Positions 1-53,124 of a stretch of DNA of 53,124 bases are shown in pieces; the stretch's first letter is position 1, and each line of letters opens with the position of its first letter. Both the position numbers and the translations under genes were made by a program. Origin of the DNA: a virus; IMG/VR virus record IMGVR_UViG_3300014572_000006; one strand, given 5' to 3'. The notes under the pieces were generated by a model. The model ran no database searches and was not told where the DNA came from. It worked only from the letters and a program-made list of their open reading frames with translations.

Positions 1-82
1 GAATTTTGTTATCATCTCCAGGCGCTTCACGGTACGGAAGCACGGGGCGAAGATTGCCCGCATCTCTTCCTCGGTGTGGCCC
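1..82. repeat. Terminal overlap, identical to 53043..53124 (assembly circularisation or terminal redundancy)
   Basis: Base-by-base comparison of the first 82 nt with the last 82 nt shows they are identical. Confidence 0.95.
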
Positions 83-1377
83 TTTTGGACCTTGGGGTGT
101 GCTCCGATGTCCCCCAGGATGGTGTTAGGTTCATAGTCCAGGTCAAAGGTCAGGATTTTTTCTGCGGCCATAAACTTTTTCTTTGTATTCACGAACTGCG
201 GGGCCTTGTTGCTCTGGCACCAGCAGACCGCCATCCCGTCCGGGGCGCACAGGGCCGCCGCGATGACCGCAATCTGCTTCCGGTCCGCCATAAAGGGTAC
301 GCTGTTGAACACGCTGGAGATAAAGACGCTGCTATACGGCGTCCCGGCCTCCACTTCGTCCAGGAAGCGGGCGGCAATCTCCAGGCTCTTTTCCTTGTGG
401 ATTTTCTCGCCCACGGTCACGAAGTACGGCTCAAAGGCTGATACCTGAATACCGGCCTTGCGGAGCGTCCGGGTGTTGTTGAGCTTCCCGGCTCCAAAGT
501 CTACCACGCTGGACCCGTAGTGTCTGCGCCAGGTCTCCAGGGCCGCGCCCTCCAGCTTGCAGAAGTCCCGCCCGCAGTTTTTCGGGAACACGCCCTTAAA
601 GAAGCCGTCCCCCAGGGCGGCGTTGCCCTCGGTGTCGGTCTCCCTGGTGTTCCGCTCCCGCATGAAGCTGTTGAAGCGCAGATCGTCGGCGTAGGTGCTC
701 TCCATGTCAAAGTCCATGGATAACAGGTTGAGCATGGAGGACGCGAAAGCCTCTTGCTCCGGCCTCACCTTGACGCAGGCGATGACCTTTCTGCCGGCCT
801 CCGCTGATACTTGCAGGCGGCCTATCCCGTTGATGACGTTCCCGGCCTCCCCGATGACTACCGGCATGGCGTTCCCGATGCGGCGCTCCAGGGATTTTGC
901 AAGCTGCTTGATGTGGGTGTCGAAGCTCCGGTGATTGAGCTTTGCCAGCTTCACGACGTCCATCCGGCGCAGGGCGTAGACGCAGGGGAATGATGCTTCG
1001 GTCCCCGGCTCGATGTCCGGCAGCTCCCCGGTCATGGCCTCGATGTCCATTTCATAGAGGCGGCGTCGGATGATAGCGCAAGTGTCCTGCTTCTGGAGGT
1101 CATTCGTGGCCCGGTTGAACAGGACGTTCACGGCCCGCCGCTCGCCCAGGGTCTTCCCGCTCACATACTCCACAGGTATCTGCTGGAAGCCCATGCGCGA
1201 GGCCACAAGATGCCGCTGGTGGCCGCTCAGGATTTCGCCGCTCTCATCGGCGTAGATCGGGAGCAGAAAGCCCAGCTTGCGGAGGGACAGCTCCGTGAGT
1301 GCCAGGCGCTTTTCGTCGTTGCGCCGGGGGTTATACTCCGACGCTCGCACGGCGTCGATGGGGACAAGTTTAATCAT
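1..1377 (-). CDS. ParB/Srx N-terminal domain fused to a class I SAM-dependent methyltransferase domain. This is the 5' part; the ORF continues across the circular junction to a stop at 52860 (519 aa in total).
   Basis: My own minus-strand translation from ATG 1377 reads MIKLVPIDAVRASEYNPRR...LSGHQRH (ParB-N motifs). Later come VVDFGAGK (SAM motif I), FEPY and ISSVFNSVPF. The ORF is missing from the ORF track because it runs off the window start. It is in frame with ORF 52860..53105 through the 82-bp overlap. Confidence 0.8.
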   Translation of the reverse strand, partial: MIKLVPIDAVRASEYNPRRNDEKRLALTELSLRKLGFLLPIYADESGEILSGHQRHLVASRMGFQQIPVEYVSGKTLGERRAVNVLFNRATNDLQKQDTCAIIRRRLYEMDIEAMTGELPDIEPGTEASFPCVYALRRMDVVKLAKLNHRSFDTHIKQLAKSLERRIGNAMPVVIGEAGNVINGIGRLQVSAEAGRKVIACVKVRPEQEAFASSMLNLLSMDFDMESTYADDLRFNSFMRERNTRETDTEGNAALGDGFFKGVFPKNCGRDFCKLEGAALETWRRHYGSSVVDFGAGKLNNTRTLRKAGIQVSAFEPYFVTVGEKIHKEKSLEIAARFLDEVEAGTPYSSVFISSVFNSVPFMADRKQIAVIAAALCAPDGMAVCWCQSNKAPQFVNTKKKFMAAEKILTFDLDYEPNTILGDIGAHPKVQKGHTEEEMRAIFAPCFRTVKRLEMITKF

Positions 1378-2728: not shown

Positions 2729-3205
2729 TTATCCGAATAAGCTGCATTGGTCGAAAGCCGGGACCCTCGCCATGCCCGCCGATTTGATGAAGCGGTCATA
2801 GGGGGCGGCCTCAATACCGAACCGCGCATACATGGCCCGCGTCTTCGGATTGCTCTCCACCGCGTAGTAGTGCGCCCCCTCCGGGCCGTTCTGTGCGCCG
2901 TGCCGGGGCAGGATGAAGCGCCGGAGAGCGCTCTCCTTGAAGATCGGAGGCTCCGCGTTGATGTCGTTGAAGTACCACTCCTGGGGCTGCCAGCCGGTCT
3001 TCCGCTTGATGTTCGCCATGGTCTGCTTCATCTGGTAGTCCGGTCTGGCCGTCACGATGATAACATAGTCATCCCGGATGGCCTCAATCAGATCGGCCCG
3101 GTACTCTTCGGCCTCCATGCGCCGGGAGAATGGCCGGAGCATTCGCGTGTCCGCCTGGTTTCCTACCAGGGTGTAGTTTAGATCGAGTAGGCAGATGTTT
3201 TTCAT
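2729..3205 (-). CDS. Hypothetical protein, possibly a HAD-superfamily phosphatase-like fold
   Basis: 158-aa ORF. N-terminal LLDLNYT resembles HAD motif I (DxDxT with the second Asp replaced by Asn), and VIIVTARP resembles motif II. This is a weak call. Confidence 0.35.
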   Translation of the reverse strand: MKNICLLDLNYTLVGNQADTRMLRPFSRRMEAEEYRADLIEAIRDDYVIIVTARPDYQMKQTMANIKRKTGWQPQEWYFNDINAEPPIFKESALRRFILPRHGAQNGPEGAHYYAVESNPKTRAMYARFGIEAAPYDRFIKSAGMARVPAFDQCSLFG

Positions 3206-3343
3206 AGGTTAGTTACTCCTTTGCTTTTTCCTACCGTAATTATACCACATTTCAGGGCTTTTGTCACAGGTTTTCCCAAAAAATATGCCGTGAACTTGGT
3301 ATTTATGACGGTTTTCTCTACCCACACTCTTTCATTGTGGATG

Positions 3344-6884: not shown

Positions 6885-7712
6885 TTATTCTCCGTCTACC
6901 CGCACCATGCCCTCGGGGTACTCCTGAATGAGAGGCCCGCCCCACAGGTCTTTCAGACTGTTTTTCATAAAGACGGGGACCCCGGCAGACTGAGCAACTT
7001 CCGTGATGGCCTCTACCCATTCCCGCTTCGGCTGCTTTCGCTTGCTTCCCGGTCCGGTCATGGCTCCGATGATGACCCAAAGAGGCTCGCCAAGCCGCCG
7101 GAAACCGGCGCAGTCATCCGCGCTGAACGGCTCCAGCAGCGGCTCAATGCTCAGGAACGTGTTGACGCAGGAAGCTCCAAAGTATTCCGTTTCAGGGCCG
7201 GTGATCGTGGTCCCGTACCAGAAGTTCCGCTCCATGGGGAGCTTCCCGGCGTGGCCCATGTCAAGATACCTCTGCGGGTTCTTGGTAAGGAACAGGTAAG
7301 TATGCTGCGGCGCTCGCTTGCAGGCGGCGAAGACATCCTCAATCCAGATGTCCGGCACCCACTCCCCGAACAAGTCTCCCATGCTGGAGACGAAGATCCG
7401 CGCAGGCGTCTTCCGCTTCTCAGGATAGTCCATGGTGTAGGCGTGATAGGTGGGGGCAAAGCCCTTGGGGTACGGGGTGGAGCGCACAGGCTCCCCATTT
7501 TCGTCGCAGAGCTTGGTAGGCTGCTCCACGTAGTAGCACCCGGTCCCCTTGGGTAGTACCTCCAGTGGCTCAATGATGGGCCGCTCGCAGGGGTGCGGGC
7601 CAAACCTGGACACCATGCGCCGGGCGTAGCAGTATTCGCACCCGTGCTTGCACCCCGTTACGGGGTTCCACGTGTGGCTGCACCACTCAATGTCGGTTTT
7701 GTGAATATTCAT
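6885..7712 (-). CDS. Phage Gp37/Gp68 family protein (DUF5131)
   Basis: The N-terminus IEWCSHTWNPVTGCKHGCEYCYA is the hallmark of this family. Confidence 0.8.
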   Translation of the reverse strand: MNIHKTDIEWCSHTWNPVTGCKHGCEYCYARRMVSRFGPHPCERPIIEPLEVLPKGTGCYYVEQPTKLCDENGEPVRSTPYPKGFAPTYHAYTMDYPEKRKTPARIFVSSMGDLFGEWVPDIWIEDVFAACKRAPQHTYLFLTKNPQRYLDMGHAGKLPMERNFWYGTTITGPETEYFGASCVNTFLSIEPLLEPFSADDCAGFRRLGEPLWVIIGAMTGPGSKRKQPKREWVEAITEVAQSAGVPVFMKNSLKDLWGGPLIQEYPEGMVRVDGE

Positions 7713-10810: not shown

Positions 10811-13800
10811 TCACTCCATCGTTACAGAGCTACCGTCTTCGCCGCCGGTCACGATGATATTTTGACTGAACCGCGCTTTCATGGTCGGGTCATGGGAGAT
10901 AGCCAAAATCCGCATATTGGGGTTTCTGGCCGCCATGTTCACCAGCGCGTCCGCGTAAGCCTCCGTCCCGTCCGCGTCCAGGAAGGGCGGCTCATCAATG
11001 AAGAGCATACCGAGCTGGACGCCTGCCCTCCGTGCCTTGACGTCGGCCAGGCCCAGGGTGACGGCCAGGGCTATCTTCACCTTTTCGCCGCCGCTGTGGG
11101 ACTGATAGGGCCGGTTCCCGCCGGTGATGGTGTTAATCCAGACCTCCAGGCTGTTGACTACCGTTTTTGTGCTCTTCTGCTCGCGCTCGGTGCGGATGTC
11201 AACGGCCATGCGCCCGCCGGTCATGGCGGCCAGGATGTCGTTGCTCTGCCGCATAATCTCCGGGACCACACCCCGGATAATCATGTACTGAATACCGTCC
11301 AGGCCAAAGGCTTGAGTAAGCACCGTATAGTCATTCAGGGTGGCCGCCGCGTCCTCGATGTCCCGCCGGAGCTTTGCCGTCTGCGCCTCGGCCTCGGAGA
11401 TCGCCTCCAGCTTGGCCTTGATGACCCCGCGCTGGGTAGCAAATTCGGTGAGGCTCTTCCGGCGGCTCTCCAGGGCGGCCCGCAGGCCCTTAACGTCCCC
11501 AGGCGCTTTCGGTGCTCGCTGCCGGATGTCCTCGGCCTCCTGGTGCGCGGTGGTGACTTTCCGGGTCAGCTCCGCAATCTCCAGGCGCAGGCGCTCAAGC
11601 TGCGGCTCCAGGGCGTCGGCGGTCGCGCCGGCCGCTTGGCAGTCGGCCAGATGTCCGGCGATGGGTTCATCGTCTTCAATGCTCTTCTTCGCGGCCTGGT
11701 ACTCGATGACCGCCAGCCCCAGGGCCGCCCGCTCCGCGTCAATCTCCACAGTCCGCTCCTTGGCGTCCTGGGCGGTCTGTTCGGCGGCCTGGATGGAGGC
11801 GGTGATTTCCTCCAGCTTCGCTTCTGCCGCCGCGATCTGCGGCGCGATGGCGGTCATGGTCCGGTAGGTATGCTCCTTGGCCTCCAGCTCCGCCAGGTCT
11901 CCCGACGGATTACCCAGGGCCTCATGCGCTGCCAGGACCTCTTCATAGGCTTTCGTCAGCTCTTCATACCGGGCGCGGTCCTCCGCTTTCATGGTCTCCA
12001 GGGAGTAGGACAGCTCCGGGATAGCGGCCTGAGCTGCCACAGCGGACACCAGGAACTTGCAAGTAGCGGTCTCCGGCACAGGGCAACCGCTGTCGGCCAG
12101 CTTCCCGGCCTCGGCCTGAGCCGCCGCAAGGCGGGATTGAAGCTCCCCGATGCGGACCCGGCTGTCTGCCAGGTGCTTGTCTTTGGCCTCCCGTGCGGCC
12201 AGCAGCGCCTTAGTAGTCTCAAAGGACTTGGCAAGCCGCTCCTGGGCCTCCGCTTTTACCGGGGCCAGGGCGTCAAGCGCGGCCTGGGCCGCCTCCACGT
12301 CCGGCTTTCTGTCGATGATGTCCTGGTACTGCCGGAGCTTTCTCCGGGCCGCCTCCGCGTCCTGCTCCGCCTTGCCGATTTCATCCCGGAGGCGGGACAG
12401 CTCCTTTAGCAGCTCCTTGTCCCGGTCCACCTTGGGGGAGAGGTCCTGGAGTTTTGCCCGCGCCGCCTTGACCCTCTCAGCGGCGTCCTGGGCGTCTCGG
12501 AGACCGTTTGCAAGGTGGCGGGCGTCCTGGTATTGGCCCTCCAGTTTCTCCAGCTCCAGAGCCTTTCTGTCTCGCTCCCGGTCATATTCCTTGGCCTGGG
12601 CGTCCTTATCCTCGGCCTGCCGTATCACTTCGGCAAGCAGAGCCTCGGCACTCTCCAGCGCCCGGAGGTCCGCCTCGCCGGATGCTACGTCATGGACAGC
12701 TTCGTCCATCTCTTCGGACAGCACCATGTCCTCATCCAGTAGCTCATCCTTTTCGCTGATCTGCTCGCCCAGGACGTTGATACGCTCCTTGAGGGCGGCG
12801 ATGGTACGGCGCTGCTCCGTAGCGGATGCCTTGGCGATGTCCTCCATCCTGCCGTAGATGTCCAGGCCCAGGAGGGCAGATAGGACCTCCATGCGCCGGT
12901 CGCTGTCGGCGTCCAGGAAGAGGCCGTAGGCGTCCTGCCGGATGAGGGCGATGCTACAAAAGGTGTTGCAGTCCATACCGAGCAGCCGCTCAATGCGGGC
13001 CTGGGTCAGCTTCATGGTAGTGTCGCTCTCATCTGCCCAGGCGTCCCCCTCCGGGTTCCACCGCTGGAGGGCCAGGGTGCCGCGCCCGCTCTTGGTCCTG
13101 GTGCGGATGACCCGGTAGTCCTGCCCGCCCAGGGCAAAGGAAAAGATGATGCTGCCGCTTTTTGTCCCGTCGCGGACCCAGCCGCCGATGTCCTCTTTCC
13201 GGGTCTGCTCGTAGAGGCAGTCCGCGATTGCGTCCATGAAGAGAGAGGACTTGCCGACACCGTTCTGGCCGTTCACCATCGCCATGTGTACCGGGGAGAA
13301 GTCAAAGGCCGCCTCCGTGTAGCTCCGGTAGTTCTTGACCTCAATCGTCCGGGGCATAAAGGCTCCGGCGTGTTTGCTGTCCTCGCGTCCATCGTCGGCC
13401 TGCTTGATGATCGGCGCGGCCAGCTCCATGAGGCGGGCCGCTTTCTCGCCGGTGATGTCGTTGGTCTCCAGCCAGCGTGACAAGCACTCGGCGGGGCCGT
13501 CGTGCTCCGTGAGCTGGTCCTTGGCGTCCAGGGCCTCCACGTCATCCGGGATAATCTCGGCCACATAAAACGCTCCGGCGTCCATCAGGCGCTTTTGCAG
13601 CTCGGCCCGGTTAAAGGCTTTTTCCTGCTCCAGTGTGCAGGAATACCGGACCCGGACCACGCGCCCCTCCACATCCCCAGGATTGAGGGTGCCGCTGGAG
13701 ATGAATTCGGACACGTCCTGCTGCTTCATCGTCACCGTCCGGTGTACTCGCTCCGGGGTGCGCTGGAACTCCGAGGCCACGCTCCGGTCCCCGTCTGAAA

Positions 13801-14596
13801 ACTGGTGCAGCCAGAAGCCATGAGCGGTCCCCTCATCGTTGAAAGTGAGCTGGTTCACGCTTCCGCAGTAGTAGGCCGGTGTGGTAGAGCTGAGGCGCTG
13901 GGGCTTGTGGATGTGGCCGAAGCAGGCCAGGTCCACGCCCGCCGCGTCGATGGTGGCCGGGAGGACCACCACGTCCTGTCCGGCAAGGAACGTGCTGCCA
14001 TTGTCAGCCTCGCTCCCGCTTACCGTGTAGTGGGCCGTGAGGATGGATGGGAGGCTCCTGTCCAGCTCCGTAGCCAGCCCCAGGATGATGTCGTTGACAA
14101 GGGCGGTGGCGTTCCGGTTCTCCGTCTCCTTATCAGCACCAGGGCAGAAGAGGCGCAGCCGCGCCTTGTCGAAGCCGGGGACGGCCATGATCTGGACCGG
14201 CCCCTCCGATGTCACCAGGCGTTCCACCCTCGGCTCGGTGTAAATGTGTAGGTTCTTGAGGTCCGGCGTTGCCTTGCGGATGACCTCAAAGGCGCGGGGG
14301 TTATCATGGTTCATCGTGCCGAACAGCAGCACCACCGCGTCGCTGTACTCGCACAGAGGGACGATGAAGCGGGAAATGGCGTCGTTGACGTCATCCAGGG
14401 CGGTATCGGCCCACACGCGGGACCGATTGAAGAGATCGCCCGCGATGATGGTCACGGTCGGCCCCTCCGTCCGGGCCTTGTTCACAATGGCGTCCATGCA
14501 CCGCAAGGTGTCTTGGCGGCGCAGATTTGCGCCGTCCTTGGTGGGGCCTGCCAGGTCCCCCAGGTGAATGTCGCCGGTGTGCAGTATCTTAATCAT
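10811..14596 (-). CDS. Single-chain SbcD(Mre11)-SbcC(Rad50) fusion: metallophosphoesterase nuclease plus SMC-like ATPase
   Basis: Nuclease motifs: ILHTGDIHLGD, IAGDLFN, GTMNHD, FGHIHKPQ. ATPase motifs: Walker A NGQNGVGKSS, a long Ala/Glu/Lys-rich coiled coil, signature SGGEKVK, Walker B MLFIDEPPFLD, and ILAISHD. Confidence 0.85.
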   Translation of the reverse strand: MIKILHTGDIHLGDLAGPTKDGANLRRQDTLRCMDAIVNKARTEGPTVTIIAGDLFNRSRVWADTALDDVNDAISRFIVPLCEYSDAVVLLFGTMNHDNPRAFEVIRKATPDLKNLHIYTEPRVERLVTSEGPVQIMAVPGFDKARLRLFCPGADKETENRNATALVNDIILGLATELDRSLPSILTAHYTVSGSEADNGSTFLAGQDVVVLPATIDAAGVDLACFGHIHKPQRLSSTTPAYYCGSVNQLTFNDEGTAHGFWLHQFSDGDRSVASEFQRTPERVHRTVTMKQQDVSEFISSGTLNPGDVEGRVVRVRYSCTLEQEKAFNRAELQKRLMDAGAFYVAEIIPDDVEALDAKDQLTEHDGPAECLSRWLETNDITGEKAARLMELAAPIIKQADDGREDSKHAGAFMPRTIEVKNYRSYTEAAFDFSPVHMAMVNGQNGVGKSSLFMDAIADCLYEQTRKEDIGGWVRDGTKSGSIIFSFALGGQDYRVIRTRTKSGRGTLALQRWNPEGDAWADESDTTMKLTQARIERLLGMDCNTFCSIALIRQDAYGLFLDADSDRRMEVLSALLGLDIYGRMEDIAKASATEQRRTIAALKERINVLGEQISEKDELLDEDMVLSEEMDEAVHDVASGEADLRALESAEALLAEVIRQAEDKDAQAKEYDRERDRKALELEKLEGQYQDARHLANGLRDAQDAAERVKAARAKLQDLSPKVDRDKELLKELSRLRDEIGKAEQDAEAARRKLRQYQDIIDRKPDVEAAQAALDALAPVKAEAQERLAKSFETTKALLAAREAKDKHLADSRVRIGELQSRLAAAQAEAGKLADSGCPVPETATCKFLVSAVAAQAAIPELSYSLETMKAEDRARYEELTKAYEEVLAAHEALGNPSGDLAELEAKEHTYRTMTAIAPQIAAAEAKLEEITASIQAAEQTAQDAKERTVEIDAERAALGLAVIEYQAAKKSIEDDEPIAGHLADCQAAGATADALEPQLERLRLEIAELTRKVTTAHQEAEDIRQRAPKAPGDVKGLRAALESRRKSLTEFATQRGVIKAKLEAISEAEAQTAKLRRDIEDAAATLNDYTVLTQAFGLDGIQYMIIRGVVPEIMRQSNDILAAMTGGRMAVDIRTEREQKSTKTVVNSLEVWINTITGGNRPYQSHSGGEKVKIALAVTLGLADVKARRAGVQLGMLFIDEPPFLDADGTEAYADALVNMAARNPNMRILAISHDPTMKARFSQNIIVTGGEDGSSVTME

Positions 14597-50014: not shown

Positions 50015-50206
50015 TTATTCGCCTCCCTCGCGCTTCGGCTTTTTACCGAGCACCTGGGAGACAGCGGGGTTTTTGGGGCCGCCGGTCATCTTCTGCCAGC
50101 GGCGCCGGGCCTCTGCCGCCGTATTTGCCCGGATGTACTTCATCGGCCAGCCGTCAGCCGATACAAGGTAACTGCATTTCGCTTTCATGGTGTCCTCCTT
50201 AGTCAA
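50015..50206 (-). CDS. Hypothetical small protein
   Basis: 63-aa ORF between terL and the portal gene. Confidence 0.4.
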   Translation of the reverse strand: MTKEDTMKAKCSYLVSADGWPMKYIRANTAAEARRRWQKMTGGPKNPAVSQVLGKKPKREGGE

Positions 50207-51635
50207 TGCTCCAGTCGCTTACCAGCGGGTCATGCAGGGCCAGGGCCAGGGCGTCTCCCATATCCGGGGAGGACAGGCCGCGCTTTTTCATGGCCTCTTT
50301 CTTCTCCAGCTCTATCTTGCCTGCGCTGTTCACCACGTATTTCCGGTTGGAAAGTTGGCTTATCTGCTTATCATCGGGATATAGCTTGATGCTCTGCGTC
50401 CGCAGGGCCTCCCGGACCGCGCCCCACATAAGGCCGGTGCTGTTCTGGTAGTCGATGGGGTCATCGTCGCTGATGGTGCCGCCCTCGCCGCCGAAGTGAC
50501 ACTCCACGATGTCCAGGGAGAACGGGGGCGGGGTGTCCTCATCGTCGGCATACCGGCGGTCTCGCTGGGCCTGAACTTCCTCCACGATCTGCTCCCGCAG
50601 CTCCATGAGGCGGTCAAAGACGCCGACGCCCAGGCCGTCACAGTCGATTTTGACGTGTATCTCTGCCCAGGGCTGCTCCAGGGCATAGCGCTTGATGAGC
50701 TGGACGGCCTTGCCGCTCAGCTCCATGGTGTCGTTGTGGTGGTATATCTCCGGCTTTTCCTGGAGCTTCTTGTCCAGGACGGGGGATAGGACGCTGCTGT
50801 CATCGCCGTAGCGGGCGACGTCAATCCCGATGTCCACACGGGCCGCCCGGTCAATCTCCGGGGCCTCGGCCTCGCTTGCCCGCTCTGCCCACTCCATCGG
50901 TATGAAGCTGTCAGGCAGGGCCTTGGGGAACTCCCCGGCCACACGGACCCGAAAAACGTCGCTGTCCTCACCAAACATATCAATGATGGTGTCGATGAAC
51001 TGCTGATCTACTCGGCTGCTGTCCCGCCCATCAATGTGCATGGCGTTGTAAAGCTCGCGGGACTTGTGGTGGCTGTCATAGAAAAAGCCGGTAATCTTCG
51101 TGGGGTTCCCACACATTACCAACTTTGCGCCCTCCGTAGATAGTGCGCCGAGGACCGGCTCGAATATCTCATCTCGGACGCCGGAGGCTTCGTCGATGAT
51201 GTAGAGCACGTGCTCGGCGTGAAAGCCCTGGAGGGCGTCGGGCTTACTGGCCGTCCGGCCTACCGCGAACCACTCTTCCGGGTGGCCTCTCATGTAGACC
51301 TTTTCCTTGGTCCATATCAGCTCTTGAGACAGAGCCGGGTTACTGCGGAGCCATTTCGCAATCTCGGCCCACAGGATGTCCCATAGCTGGTGCTGGGTGG
51401 GGGCGGTGCAGGGTATCTTGGGATATGGCCTGGTAGTCAGGAACCAGATAGCAAGCCAGCTCTCCACCGCGCTCTTGCCGATGCCGTGGCCGGAGCGTAC
51501 AGAGGTCATGGGGTACTGAGCTACGCTGTTCAGGATGGCCCTCTGATTGCTGTCCGGCTTGGCCCTTATGATGTCCTCCACGAAGTCCACCGGATTGTCG
51601 GCGTAGTAGAGGATGGCGTCACTTGTCAGGTTCAT
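50199..51635 (-). CDS. terL: Terminase large subunit
   Basis: Walker A-like SGHGIGKS, YIIDEASG (Walker B) and a C-terminal nuclease region. I prefer the ATG at 51635 (MNLTSDAILYY...). Confidence 0.9.
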   Translation of the reverse strand: MNLTSDAILYYADNPVDFVEDIIRAKPDSNQRAILNSVAQYPMTSVRSGHGIGKSAVESWLAIWFLTTRPYPKIPCTAPTQHQLWDILWAEIAKWLRSNPALSQELIWTKEKVYMRGHPEEWFAVGRTASKPDALQGFHAEHVLYIIDEASGVRDEIFEPVLGALSTEGAKLVMCGNPTKITGFFYDSHHKSRELYNAMHIDGRDSSRVDQQFIDTIIDMFGEDSDVFRVRVAGEFPKALPDSFIPMEWAERASEAEAPEIDRAARVDIGIDVARYGDDSSVLSPVLDKKLQEKPEIYHHNDTMELSGKAVQLIKRYALEQPWAEIHVKIDCDGLGVGVFDRLMELREQIVEEVQAQRDRRYADDEDTPPPFSLDIVECHFGGEGGTISDDDPIDYQNSTGLMWGAVREALRTQSIKLYPDDKQISQLSNRKYVVNSAGKIELEKKEAMKKRGLSSPDMGDALALALHDPLVSDWSID

Positions 51636-52134
51636 TTTGCTGCTTCCTTCGTTCCCACGCCTCGGATATGACGGCGGCAAGGCTGCTGTCGGCCTGCTCA
51701 TTCGCCTTGCCCGGTGCGGTATCGGTCTCCAGCTCCATGCGGTTCTCACGCTCCAGCTTGGTAGCCTCCCGGATGAACGCCACAAGGTTCTTCGGGTCTA
51801 TCTCGCTGGGGTCCATGTCCTTGAGGGCCTGCAACGCCTTTTCCTGCAATTTCAGGGCGATGCTGATATGACGGTCAGCCATTTTCCGGCGCTTCTTGAC
51901 GGCCTGGGCATGGGCTTTCCTCTGGACGTCAACGTCGTATGCGGCGGTCCGCTCCACCCACTGATAGGTGCGGCTCCATCGGCCTATGAGTGTGGTACTT
52001 TTGTTTAACTGCTTAGCAACCGCCCGGATGCTGCGCTCTTCCCCCAGCTCCAGGTAGACCGAAAACGCCTCATACGCTTTGACACCCTCGCCCTCCAGAC
52101 GCTCCCACGGCTCGGTGTCTCTGTGCTTCGGCAT
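51619..52134 (-). CDS. terS: Terminase small subunit
   Basis: 171 aa with an N-terminal HTH (RSIRAVAKQLNKSTTLIGRWS), a coiled middle region, and position upstream of terL. Confidence 0.65.
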   Translation of the reverse strand: MPKHRDTEPWERLEGEGVKAYEAFSVYLELGEERSIRAVAKQLNKSTTLIGRWSRTYQWVERTAAYDVDVQRKAHAQAVKKRRKMADRHISIALKLQEKALQALKDMDPSEIDPKNLVAFIREATKLERENRMELETDTAPGKANEQADSSLAAVISEAWERRKQQNEPDK

Positions 52135-52167: not shown

Positions 52168-52863
52168 TCACTTAACGGCTATCCAGCCACAGAAATTCAG
52201 GCAGCGCCAAAACATATCGACTTGCCGAAAACCGGCGGTCCGCATCATGTCCACGCTCCACTCGGCCTTGAGCGGAGACAGCACATTTTCCAGGCTGCGC
52301 CGCTTGGACATGATTTGCTCATCGGTATAGCCGTTCTCCCGCTTCATCTCGTAGTAGAGGTCCACCATCAGGTCATCCATGTTTTCACTGAGGATTTTCT
52401 CTACAAAGATGAGCGCCCCGCCGTCGGTCAGGCCGTCGTAAATCTGCTTGAGCATCCGGGGGCGGTAGGACGTCGGCATGAACTGCATGGACAGGACGGA
52501 GAGGACCAGGCTGCTCTTTTGCTCAAATGGCAAATACTCCCAAATATTCCCTTGCCGGACCGTGACGTTGACGTCTGCCCGGAAGCGCTTCTCGCAGGCT
52601 TCCACCATGGCCGGTGCGTTATCCACCAGCAGAAAGTTGTTGCTCTGGCCGTACTTCACCACGAATGGCTCCACGGCCAGGCCGGTGCTGCACCCCACGT
52701 CCACAATCAGGGTCTCCGGCTGGATGAAGCGCTCGCCCAGCTTGTAGGTAAGCGCCCGCATAGATCGGTAGTCCGGGATGCTGCGCTCAAGCATATTGGC
52801 GAAGCAGGCGGCCACTTCTCCGTTGAACTCCCATTTCTCCCCAGGGTGTACGTTGTCTCTCAT
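52168..52863 (-). CDS. cmoA: CmoA-like carboxy-S-adenosyl-L-methionine synthase homologue
   Basis: Resembles E. coli CmoA (as I recall its sequence) along the full length: WEFNGEVAACFANMLERSIPDY, VDVGCSTG, VDNAPAMVE, GGALIFVEK, KRENGYTDEQIMSKRRSLENV, AGFRQVDMFWRCLNFCGWIAVK. Confidence 0.75.
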   Translation of the reverse strand: MRDNVHPGEKWEFNGEVAACFANMLERSIPDYRSMRALTYKLGERFIQPETLIVDVGCSTGLAVEPFVVKYGQSNNFLLVDNAPAMVEACEKRFRADVNVTVRQGNIWEYLPFEQKSSLVLSVLSMQFMPTSYRPRMLKQIYDGLTDGGALIFVEKILSENMDDLMVDLYYEMKRENGYTDEQIMSKRRSLENVLSPLKAEWSVDMMRTAGFRQVDMFWRCLNFCGWIAVK

Positions 52864-53124
52864 TTTGCCTCTCCTTTCGTCGGAGGGGGCAGGCGAATAC
52901 CGAGCCGGTGCTCAAACGCTTCCCGCGCTCGCTGAGACAGTCCCATGCGTGAGCCGTCCGGGTAGGGAAGCTCAAATTCAAAGTCCAGCGCAGCGGCCAG
53001 GGCCGCAGGGTCCACAATCGGGTCTGCCGCCTCCATGTACCAGAATTTTGTTATCATCTCCAGGCGCTTCACGGTACGGAAGCACGGGGCGAAGATTGCC
53101 CGCATCTCTTCCTCGGTGTGGCCC
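52860..53124 (-). CDS. 3' part of the ParB-methyltransferase fusion ORF (continues from 1377..1 across the junction)
   Basis: In frame with the 1..1377 ORF through the 82-bp overlap. Its stop TGA overlaps the cmoA-like ATG (ATGA at 52860..52863). Confidence 0.8.
   Translation of the reverse strand, partial: GHTEEEMRAIFAPCFRTVKRLEMITKFWYMEAADPIVDPAALAAALDFEFELPYPDGSRMGLSQRAREAFEHRLGIRLPPPTKGEAK
53043..53124. repeat. Terminal overlap, identical to 1..82
   Basis: Same comparison as for 1..82. Confidence 0.95.

Follow-up and report, generated by a model that had tools for sequence, protein, structure and literature searches.

A CmoA homolog coupled to a ParB-fused methyltransferase in phages and prophages: a candidate CmoX-independent, carboxy-SAM-dependent modification module

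What would a phage use carboxy-S-adenosylmethionine (Cx-SAM) for when its homolog of the Cx-SAM synthase CmoA is encoded next to a methyltransferase that resembles neither CmoB nor CmoX? This question is raised by the IMG/VR virus record IMGVR_UViG_3300014572_000006 (53,124 nucleotides; the whole stretch is hereafter called the window), in which a cmoA-like gene coding for a 231-aa protein overlaps the end of a gene coding for a 519-aa protein, hereafter the fusion, that joins two ParB/Srx domains to a class I methyltransferase domain. Our reading, to which we assign a probability of about 0.5, is that these genes and their neighbors form a CmoX-independent, Cx-SAM-dependent modification system that acts on phage DNA and is expressed together with the packaging genes; we infer the use of Cx-SAM by the transferase and its action on DNA from gene linkage and domain logic.

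A first-pass annotation of the window, made from the letters alone, had proposed DNA carboxymethylation while stating that no natural system of this kind was known, and had taken CmoB-dependent tRNA modification to be the established natural use of Cx-SAM. Both background statements need to be revised. In the Synechococcus phage S-B43 a phage CmoA makes Cx-SAM, from which CmoX forms 5-carboxymethylcytosine (5cxmC) (Yang et al., Nat Commun Dec 2025; PMC12783734), and other natural users of Cx-SAM are TglF, which acts on a peptide, and the MccS system of a nucleotide antibiotic (PMC10491745). CmoX is a C5-cytosine methyltransferase homolog with an SPPC motif and with R350 replacing the Asn of motif X, and CmoY ligates glycine to the carboxymethyl group, yielding a glycine amide (PMC12783734). 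ParB-domain proteins were found to be frequent neighbors of the CmoA-CmoX-CmoY genes, and a preliminary search by the same authors returned no CmoA-associated N6-adenine or N4-cytosine carboxymethyltransferases (PMC12783734).

The CmoA homolog and its linkage to the fusion gene

In searches against NCBIfam the 231-aa protein matched the CmoA model TIGR00740 with 164.5 bits (E 3e-48; model positions 14-239 of 239), compared with 34 bits for the runner-up family, BioC. The best matches in the PDB were E. coli CmoA (4gek, E 6e-38; 4iwn, E 2e-36), followed by H. influenzae YecO, and the identity with E. coli CmoA was 33.5% over the full length, in agreement with the full-length match that had been claimed in the first-pass annotation. 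Arg199 of CmoA forms a salt bridge to the carboxylate of Cx-SAM and separates CmoA-type from ordinary S-adenosylmethionine (SAM) enzymes (Byrne et al., 2013; PMC3663124). A check of the Cx-SAM residues had been proposed, and of the 13 residues that Byrne et al. (2013) name as contacting the cofactor, 10 were found to be kept (E. coli numbering: Y39, D62, G64, S66, A70, D89, N90, F137, E164, and R199), with R188 of the 231-aa protein aligned to E. coli R199; D117, I118, and N132 fall in a poorly aligned stretch. Judged by these sequence comparisons, the 231-aa protein is a member of the CmoA family that keeps the Cx-SAM-binding residues.

Among 124 distinct fusion-linked CmoA sequences Y39, D62, G64, F137, and K198 were almost invariant and position 199 was occupied by Arg or Lys in 89. 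About 15 sequences from Vibrio, Photobacterium, and Desulfovibrio prophages (e.g., loci L165 and L161) carry Glu at this position ("SKELSLSG"), and several others carry Ala and, one turn of the helix further on, an Arg ("KAxALRG"). Glu is likewise found at position 199 in the CmoA of phage S-CRM01, which is encoded beside an enzyme with the CmoX signature (SPPC, G-R-x-V-P). Since the substitutions extend to this CmoX-linked protein, the carboxylate-binding residue may have shifted in phage CmoAs.

The closest phage relatives of the 231-aa protein (44-48% identity) were the CmoAs of Alcaligenes phage Afa-NA1 and of Erwinia jumbo phages. The neighbors of cmoA in Afa-NA1 (L004) are genes for a NUDIX protein, a dTMP kinase, and a protein annotated "DNA adenine methylase," and those in the Erwinia jumbo phages (L005, phage Y3) code for an asparagine synthase and an oxygenase, the asparagine-synthase gene of Y3 adjoining cmoA. 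No C5-methyltransferase gene was found within 5 kb of cmoA in L004 or L005, and further Cx-SAM-using arrangements may therefore exist.

The genomic context of the fusion gene was determined for 78 IMG/VR viral contigs (fusion 42-99% identical to the window protein) and for 80 loci in GTDB species genomes. A cmoA-like open reading frame (ORF) lay directly downstream of the fusion gene in 77 of the 78 IMG/VR loci, and the contig of the lone exception stops 32 bp past the fusion gene. Among the genome loci, cmoA was adjacent in 74 of 80 (E < 1e-10), the six exceptions being four contig ends and two prophages. Taken together, cmoA adjoined the fusion gene in 151 of 158 loci, and five of the seven exceptions were contig ends. 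The genome loci came from Clostridia, Verrucomicrobiota, Alphaproteobacteria, Cyanobacteria, Chloroflexi, Bacteroidota, Planctomycetota, Vibrio/Photobacterium, and Desulfovibrio. Full-length fusion homologs (32-38% identity) were also identified in the cultured Gordonia phage Evaa, the Pseudomonas Samunavirus group (SM1, PaMx31, FBPa45, PA_L9, UF_RH6, and the BHU phages), and Aeromonas phage HJ05, and the gene after the fusion gene had CmoA as its best NCBIfam match in these phages (92-121 bits). Co-occurrence in related phages, which had been named as a check of the original proposal, was thus observed in the sequence databases as well as in three cultured lineages. The linkage is as tight as gene-neighborhood evidence gets and is the main reason for our prediction that the fusion consumes Cx-SAM. 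A literature search on DNA modification in Samunavirus, PaMx31, or SM1 returned nothing relevant.

The two genes also appear to be coupled at translation. The stop codon of the fusion gene (TGA, 52860..52862) overlaps the start codon of the cmoA-like gene (ATG, 52861..52863) as ATGA at 52860..52863, as had been noted at first reading, and AAGGAGAGG, upstream of the cmoA-like ATG, is a good ribosome-binding site. C5-methyltransferase genes were present within 6 kb of the fusion gene in only 8 of the 158 loci. Their products were considered as CmoX candidates and rejected, as they have the canonical 5-methylcytosine signatures (GYPCQPFS and GNAVVP) and lack SPPC and the Arg of CmoX.

The fusion might instead methylate DNA with SAM in the ordinary way, and CmoA might have a task of its own, such as draining SAM or providing Cx-SAM against SAM-dependent host defenses; the two genes would then be linked only through a shared anti-restriction role. 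The standard SAM motifs of the domain (DxGxG and the acidic residue of motif II) would fit this explanation, SAM depletion by CmoA was raised by the authors of the CmoX study (PMC12783734), and the fusion gene is kept without cmoA at two loci. However, if their functions were independent, one would expect neither translational coupling nor a cmoA directly following the fusion gene in about 97% of the untruncated loci, in different phyla and even where protein identity falls to about 31%; other phage methyltransferase families do not travel with cmoA, and this methyltransferase domain is essentially never encountered outside the cmoA/fusion context. We consider this explanation unlikely.

The ParB-ParB-methyltransferase protein

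The structure of the fusion was modeled with AlphaFold2 (AF2) using 40 homologs (predicted local distance difference test (pLDDT) 87.7, predicted template modeling score 0.79). It comprises a first ParB/Srx domain (aa 1-118), a second one (aa 125-226), and a class I methyltransferase domain (aa ~280-465). The first-pass annotation had described a ParB/Srx N-terminal domain joined to a class I methyltransferase, which holds, and had missed the second ParB domain; the motifs VVDFGAGK, FEPY, and ISSVFNSVPF that it had listed are all present in the reconstructed 519-aa ORF. The two N-terminal regions were aligned with each other by hhalign with 97% probability (E 3e-11), so that they represent two tandem ParB/Srx domains, each with GxxR. 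In Foldseek searches the N-terminal part resembled Noc/ParB (7nfu and 7bnr) and the C-terminal half resembled generic small-molecule-type SAM methyltransferases of class I (E ~1e-5; target-normalized TM 0.5-0.63). A profile built from 56 diverse family members matched the N-terminal domains of Noc/Spo0J (E 1e-8) and UbiG (E 1e-4) in the PDB and no DNA methyltransferase structure. The generic small-molecule-type fold proposed earlier was thereby recovered, and of the profile comparisons that had been suggested, the one with methyltransferases returned UbiG whereas the one with CmoB returned nothing: a CmoB structure appeared neither in the profile search of the PDB up to E 10 nor among the top 50 Foldseek matches. 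The match to the ParB model PF02195 was just below the gathering score (23.9 vs 26.3 bits), and PF13489 (Methyltransf_23) was matched weakly. In PHROGs the fusion belongs to phrog_5475 (E 5e-198), to which no function is assigned.

Conservation in the family was assessed with 99 representatives of 50%-identity clusters. Conserved positions in the ParB part are N16-P-R18, S51-G-H-Q-R55, N84, N88, and T91-N-D93, which are motifs of the nucleoside triphosphate (NTP) type; G52-x-x-R55, N84, N88, and T91-N92-D93 were kept in at least 97% of the members, and the second copy carries G184-x-x-R187. From its sequence this part is assigned a ParB/Srx fold with GxxR and Box III-like residues, and NTP binding is predicted. 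In the transferase part D293-x-G-x-G297, E316-P317, N358-S-x-P-F362, D365-R366, E416, K429, Q431, K432, E438, and E481-F482 are conserved, as are R234 and R240 before the Rossmann core. D293-x-G295-x-G297 and E316 were kept in 95-100% of the representatives, and the predicted structure is that of a class I Rossmann SAM methyltransferase. In CmoB the S-carboxymethyl group is recognized by K91, Y200, and R315 (PMC4482062). By analogy with K91 and R315 of CmoB and with R350 of CmoX, the conserved basic residues R234, R240, R366, K429, and K432 may be guessed to bind the carboxylate of Cx-SAM.

The kind of transferase can be narrowed down by what it resembles. No match to PF01555 or PF00145 was obtained in Pfam searches with the fusion, in line with the earlier failure to find amino- or C5-methyltransferase features by eye. 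A catalytic-Cys mechanism on C5 of a pyrimidine (TrmA/RumA-like) was considered on account of "CWCQSN" at the end of strand 5 in close homologs; Cys385 is kept in close relatives and not family-wide, which argues against a covalent C5-pyrimidine mechanism. The motif N-S-x-P-F was also considered as a degenerate NPPY motif of amino-methyltransferases. It follows strand 4, is one residue longer than motif IV of these enzymes, and lies inside the profile region 279-393 that was aligned by HMMER to UbiG; we take it to be the counterpart of the "EHVPD" segment of UbiG-type methyltransferases, and the NPPY interpretation was set aside. The sequence evidence thus supports a ParB-fused class I methyltransferase that is neither a canonical DNA amino-methyltransferase nor a canonical C5-methyltransferase.

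The transferase domain had only 298 relatives among 1.84 billion cluster representatives. Nearly all of these are 500-520 aa long with the domain at the same place, and the domain therefore occurs essentially only as this fusion. A distant, independent homolog (P0234, 706 aa) has an additional standalone-type ParB domain with an acidic linker fused in frame at the N-terminus, giving three ParB domains, which suggests that the standalone ParB proteins encoded at these loci are functionally linked to the transferase. A second protein with three ParB domains (P0003, 730 aa) resembles it and may be a frameshift or assembly artefact. A 546-aa protein (P0042; ParB and Methyltransf_25 in Pfam) was considered as a transferase-CmoA fusion and rejected, being an internal deletion chimera in which half of each protein is gone.

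In place of a polynucleotide, the transferase could carboxymethylate a protein, such as a packaging or ParB protein, or else a free nucleotide or small molecule, an option that had already been listed in the first-pass annotation. It would agree with the nearest relatives of the domain, which are small-molecule O-, N-, and C-methyltransferases, and with the peptide and nucleotide-antibiotic pathways of TglF and MccS (PMC10491745), and the haloacid dehalogenase (HAD)-fold protein encoded nearby (orf158, see below) could be a nucleotide phosphatase. On the other hand, phage ParB/Srx-methyltransferase fusions are generally read as DNA-directed (PMC12704722), the window has neither a nucleotide kinase nor a phage DNA polymerase by which a modified nucleotide might be channeled into DNA, and nothing at the locus resembles a biosynthetic cluster. 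Carboxymethylation of such a target seems distinctly unlikely to us.

Accessory proteins, known carboxy-SAM systems, and the proposed mechanism

A conserved gene of the module that the earlier annotation had missed is orf158. Its product has no Pfam family and belongs to phrog_32036 of unassigned function. The AF2 model (pLDDT 90.4) has a capless HAD fold, for which the 3'-phosphatase domain of T4 polynucleotide kinase (PNK) was the best structural match (2ia5, E 3e-5; Foldseek), with bacterial Pnkp1 also matched. Motif I reads D-L-N-Y-T, i.e., D-x-N-x-T in place of D-x-D-x-T. D8 (nucleophile), T52 (motif II), K90 (motif III), and E117 are conserved, and the D+2 position of the general acid/base is an invariant Asn, with His in phage Evaa, which makes phosphatase activity uncertain. 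The protein is 40% identical to gp4 of Gordonia phage Evaa, which is annotated as a phosphatase. Homologs were found in 70 of 81 loci (76 IMG/VR loci, four genome loci, and phage Evaa) and in 71 of the 80 genome loci, corresponding to about 88% of loci overall, and in many distant loci the gene lies between the fusion gene and cmoA. It was not present in four cmoA neighborhoods without a fusion gene (L004-L007). On this distribution orf158 is a predicted conserved accessory of the module.

In the standalone ParB-like proteins an acidic linker connects the ParB_N domain with a short C-terminal domain. These proteins accompany the fusion in most loci; homologs of ParB-like protein B were detected by tblastn in 69 of 81 related loci. 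Two further ParB-like ORFs overlapping the fusion gene and each other had been reported at first reading, and both matched PF02195 (Table 1). ParB-like proteins serve as activators of phage DNA dioxygenases (PMC13229309). The ParB-dependent phage thymine dioxygenases (5mYOX) resemble the present locus in that the standalone ParB-like proteins have a nucleotide-binding and a C-terminal domain and no evident DNA-binding domain, and in that their genes lie beside a DNA-modifying enzyme gene and near terminase genes (PMC13229309). The chemistry differs, oxidation in those systems compared with the alkyl transfer predicted here. Another set of relatives is formed by fusions of ParB_N with N6_N4_Mtase (e.g., phrog_498) and of ParB-CTPase folds with Methyltransf_23 (PMC12704722). 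They share the N-terminal ParB/Srx domain, the SAM-type transferase, and the enrichment in phages and prophages, which that survey reports for the ParB and Methyltransf_23 fusions. Unlike them, the catalytic domain described here is not PF01555, its ParB domain is duplicated, and it is essentially always paired with cmoA; the survey of ParB-CTPase fusions does not mention CmoA (PMC12704722).

The locus could not be filed under a known Cx-SAM system, as CmoX, CmoB, and CmoY were sought in the genome and none was found. With two C5-methyltransferases encoded beside phage cmoA genes as tblastn queries for CmoX, the best match in the whole window had an E-value of 0.3, and all matches to SPPC/GPPC patterns in the window were in non-coding frames. 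When 30 ORFs of the modification, replication, lysogeny, and head regions were searched against Pfam, no PF00145, PF01555, asparagine-synthase, or AMP-forming ligase domain was detected. Besides CmoA, the fusion was the only SAM-type transferase found. As in the CmoA-CmoX-CmoY system, a phage CmoA homolog stands beside a Rossmann-fold transferase with no CmoB, ParB-domain proteins are common nearby, and the presumed role is anti-restriction DNA modification. In contrast to CmoX, the transferase lacks PF00145, SPPC, a catalytic Cys conserved across the family, and a counterpart of R350 in motif X; the locus also lacks a CmoY-type amide ligase, and it has two fused ParB domains and a HAD-fold partner. 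The module thus swaps the known DNA transferase for a non-homologous, ParB-fused one and adds a HAD-fold protein. Because the fusion has neither a C5-methyltransferase fold nor the catalytic Cys, formation of 5cxmC by the mechanism of CmoX is unlikely.

With the bacterial pathway of uridine 5-oxyacetic acid (cmo5U) in tRNA, in which CmoA is followed by CmoB, the locus shares a CmoA homolog that keeps Arg199 and the SAM-contact residues. It differs from it in that the fusion matches no CmoB model or structure, in that no CmoB was detected by NCBIfam searches among the six module ORFs, as expected from the earlier failure to recognize a cmoB-like gene, and in that the genes stand in a phage packaging operon and not in a tRNA-modification operon. 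Nevertheless, the target could be RNA, e.g., host or phage tRNA, with the fusion as a functional analog of CmoB giving a carboxymethyl-type modification. Modification of tRNA is the ancestral role of CmoA, the HAD-fold partner comes nearest to the 3'-phosphatase domains of two RNA-repair enzymes, T4 PNK and bacterial Pnkp1, and RNA-related domains are among those fused to ParB-CTPase folds (PMC12704722). Against this, the fusion is not similar to CmoB, neither of the hydroxylases TrhO and TrhP was detected in the module, and phages of Pseudomonas, Aeromonas, and Vibrio, Gram-negative hosts that are expected to own CmoA and CmoB, carry the module as well. The presence of up to four ParB/Srx domains and the position at the head of a packaging operon fit DNA better, and the only demonstrated use of a phage CmoA is on DNA (PMC12783734). 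Cx-SAM-dependent cmo5U synthesis is described for Gram-negative bacteria (PMC6158493), and on that basis the Clostridia host of the window phage probably lacks it. An RNA target is the least probable of the alternatives considered here.

For the preferred reading, modification of phage DNA, the following sequence of events can be proposed. The 231-aa CmoA homolog would convert SAM and prephenate into Cx-SAM, as suggested by the strong homology and the residue conservation. The C-terminal Rossmann domain of the 519-aa protein would then carboxymethylate its target with Cx-SAM, a step to which the near-obligate adjacency across phyla, the translational coupling, and the almost exclusive occurrence of the domain in this architecture point. 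The target would most likely be phage DNA after replication, with the two tandem ParB/Srx domains and one or two standalone ParB proteins serving as NTP-gated DNA-loading or activating partners, by analogy with ParB-fused DNA methyltransferases and with the ParB-dependent phage thymine dioxygenases. As the genes apparently come first in the late packaging operon, modification might take place just before or during encapsidation, and the DNA would enter the next host shielded from restriction. A more specific version of this reading, which we put forward tentatively as a possibility, is that phrog_5475 founds a second, evolutionarily independent class of Cx-SAM DNA carboxymethyltransferases, which would produce a base other than 5cxmC, e.g., an N-carboxymethylated purine or cytosine, would be loaded onto DNA or activated there by NTP-gated ParB folds at packaging, and would occur widely among prophages of gut Clostridia, Verrucomicrobiota, Cyanobacteria, and Proteobacteria, with further representatives in cultured phages of Pseudomonas, Gordonia, and Aeromonas.

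Several observations speak against modification of DNA with Cx-SAM. The score of the 231-aa protein missed the equivalog cut-off of TIGR00740 (164.5 vs 193.3 bits). Since the phage CmoAs encoded beside C5-methyltransferases also score below it (119 bits in S-CRM01, 166 bits in Staphylococcus phage F1), the cut-off appears to separate bacterial orthologs from phage homologs and not to mark loss of function. About a quarter of the fusion-linked CmoA homologs have no basic residue at position 199. Two loci (L112 and L122) are the only untruncated ones with a fusion gene and no cmoA; on these contigs of Verrucomicrobiota-type metagenome-assembled genomes the fusion gene and the HAD-like gene are present with no cmoA after them, and they may be decaying prophage ends or mis-assemblies. 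The methyltransferase domain is nearest to UbiG, CcbJ, and glycine/sarcosine N-methyltransferases and is unlike any DNA or RNA methyltransferase, so that the ParB fusion is the sole argument for a DNA substrate. The motif N-S-x-P-F, read as an EHVPD-like segment, says nothing on the target atom. Finally, the HAD-like protein has no explanation in this scheme and could point to RNA or to nucleic acid ends and not to bulk DNA.

Natural Cx-SAM-dependent DNA modification has been known only since December 2025 and only through CmoX, and the window and about 150 related loci pair CmoA with a transferase unrelated in fold family to CmoX. If this enzyme uses Cx-SAM, it would probably make a new DNA (or RNA) modification, and it would be a new case of a ParB-fold protein controlling a DNA-modifying enzyme as well as a new enzyme scaffold for placing carboxyl handles on nucleic acids. 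The prediction is directly testable because cultured phages (Pseudomonas Samunavirus, Gordonia Evaa, and Aeromonas HJ05) carry the module.

Genome organization and neighboring genes

The terminal 82 bases of the window (53043..53124) were found by self-comparison to be an exact direct repeat of positions 1..82, which identifies the contig as a circle of 53,042 bp, i.e., a closed assembly and not a fragment. The fusion gene is split across the window ends by the circular junction, beyond which its methyltransferase domain continues. Upstream of the 231-aa ORF the reading frame is open to the last window base, and a plain circular join of the ends introduces an in-frame stop that is caused by the 82-bp overlap; removal of the overlap restored the 519-aa ORF. 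Its path runs on the minus strand from the ATG at 1377 to position 1 and then from 53042 to 52860, with the last 60 codons and the stop located within 52860..53042. The feature had been placed at 52168..53124 in the first-pass annotation, an interval that takes in the cmoA-like gene but only ~88 codons at the end of the fusion gene; the remainder of that gene lies at 1..1377.

Almost all genes of the window are on the minus strand (Table 1). Five genes are linked by overlapping starts and stops in the order orf158, ParB-like protein B, ParB-like protein A, fusion, and cmoA, the stop of ParB-like protein A overlapping the start of the fusion gene. A gene for a transcriptional regulator (phrog_36) lies immediately upstream of the module. 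The position directly upstream of terS that had been described earlier was borne out, terS starting 33 nt past the end of cmoA, and the genes for the portal, prohead protease, and major capsid proteins follow downstream of terL. The promoter-like site upstream of orf158 possibly marks the start of an operon that runs into terS and terL, and a consensus search for terminator-like sites on the minus strand between this site and terL found none. From this layout the module appears to head the packaging operon.

Table 1. Features of the module and other genes of the window referred to in the text.
Feature	Coordinates	Strand	Basis or remark
cmoA-like gene, 231 aa, predicted carboxy-SAM synthase	52168..52863	-	TIGR00740 and 4gek matches, conserved residues, phrog_4752
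3' end of the 519-aa ParB-ParB-methyltransferase gene	52860..53124	-	53043..53124 duplicate 1..82
5' 459 codons of the 519-aa fusion gene	1..1377	-	Reconstructed ORF; phrog_5475
ParB-like protein A, standalone, 227 aa	1370..2053	-	PF02195; phrog_620, E 7e-45
ParB-like protein B, standalone, 234 aa	2043..2747	-	PF02195; phrog_620, E 5e-46
orf158, 158 aa, capless HAD fold resembling the T4 PNK 3'-phosphatase domain	2729..3205	-	AF2 and Foldseek; phrog_32036
Promoter-like site GTGACA-17-TATAAT with TG before it	3239..3267	-	Consensus match only; upstream of orf158
terS	51619..52134	-	phrog_6299, E 1.5e-54; starts 33 nt past cmoA end
terL	50199..51785	-	phrog_2 terminase large subunit, E 5e-45
DUF5131 gene (phage Gp37/Gp68 family), early region	6885..7712	-	E 2e-41
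1261-aa ORF	10811..14596	-	Calcineurin-like phosphoesterase (Metallophos) and SMC/RecF-type AAA ATPase domains

An integrase, RecU, and an amidase-type endolysin are also encoded in the genome. A copy of the fusion locus that is 99% identical was found on a 415-kb scaffold of Pseudoflavonifractor sp. Marseille-P3106, which is consistent with an integrated prophage. Together, these genes and the Pseudoflavonifractor copy identify the window as a temperate phage of gut Oscillospiraceae.

Homologs of the DUF5131 gene of the early region were detected by tblastn in only 11 of 81 related loci, and this gene was therefore not counted as part of the module. The 1261-aa ORF, with its phosphoesterase and ATPase domains on one chain, has the appearance of a single-chain nuclease of the SbcCD/Mre11-Rad50 type, here encoded by a temperate phage.

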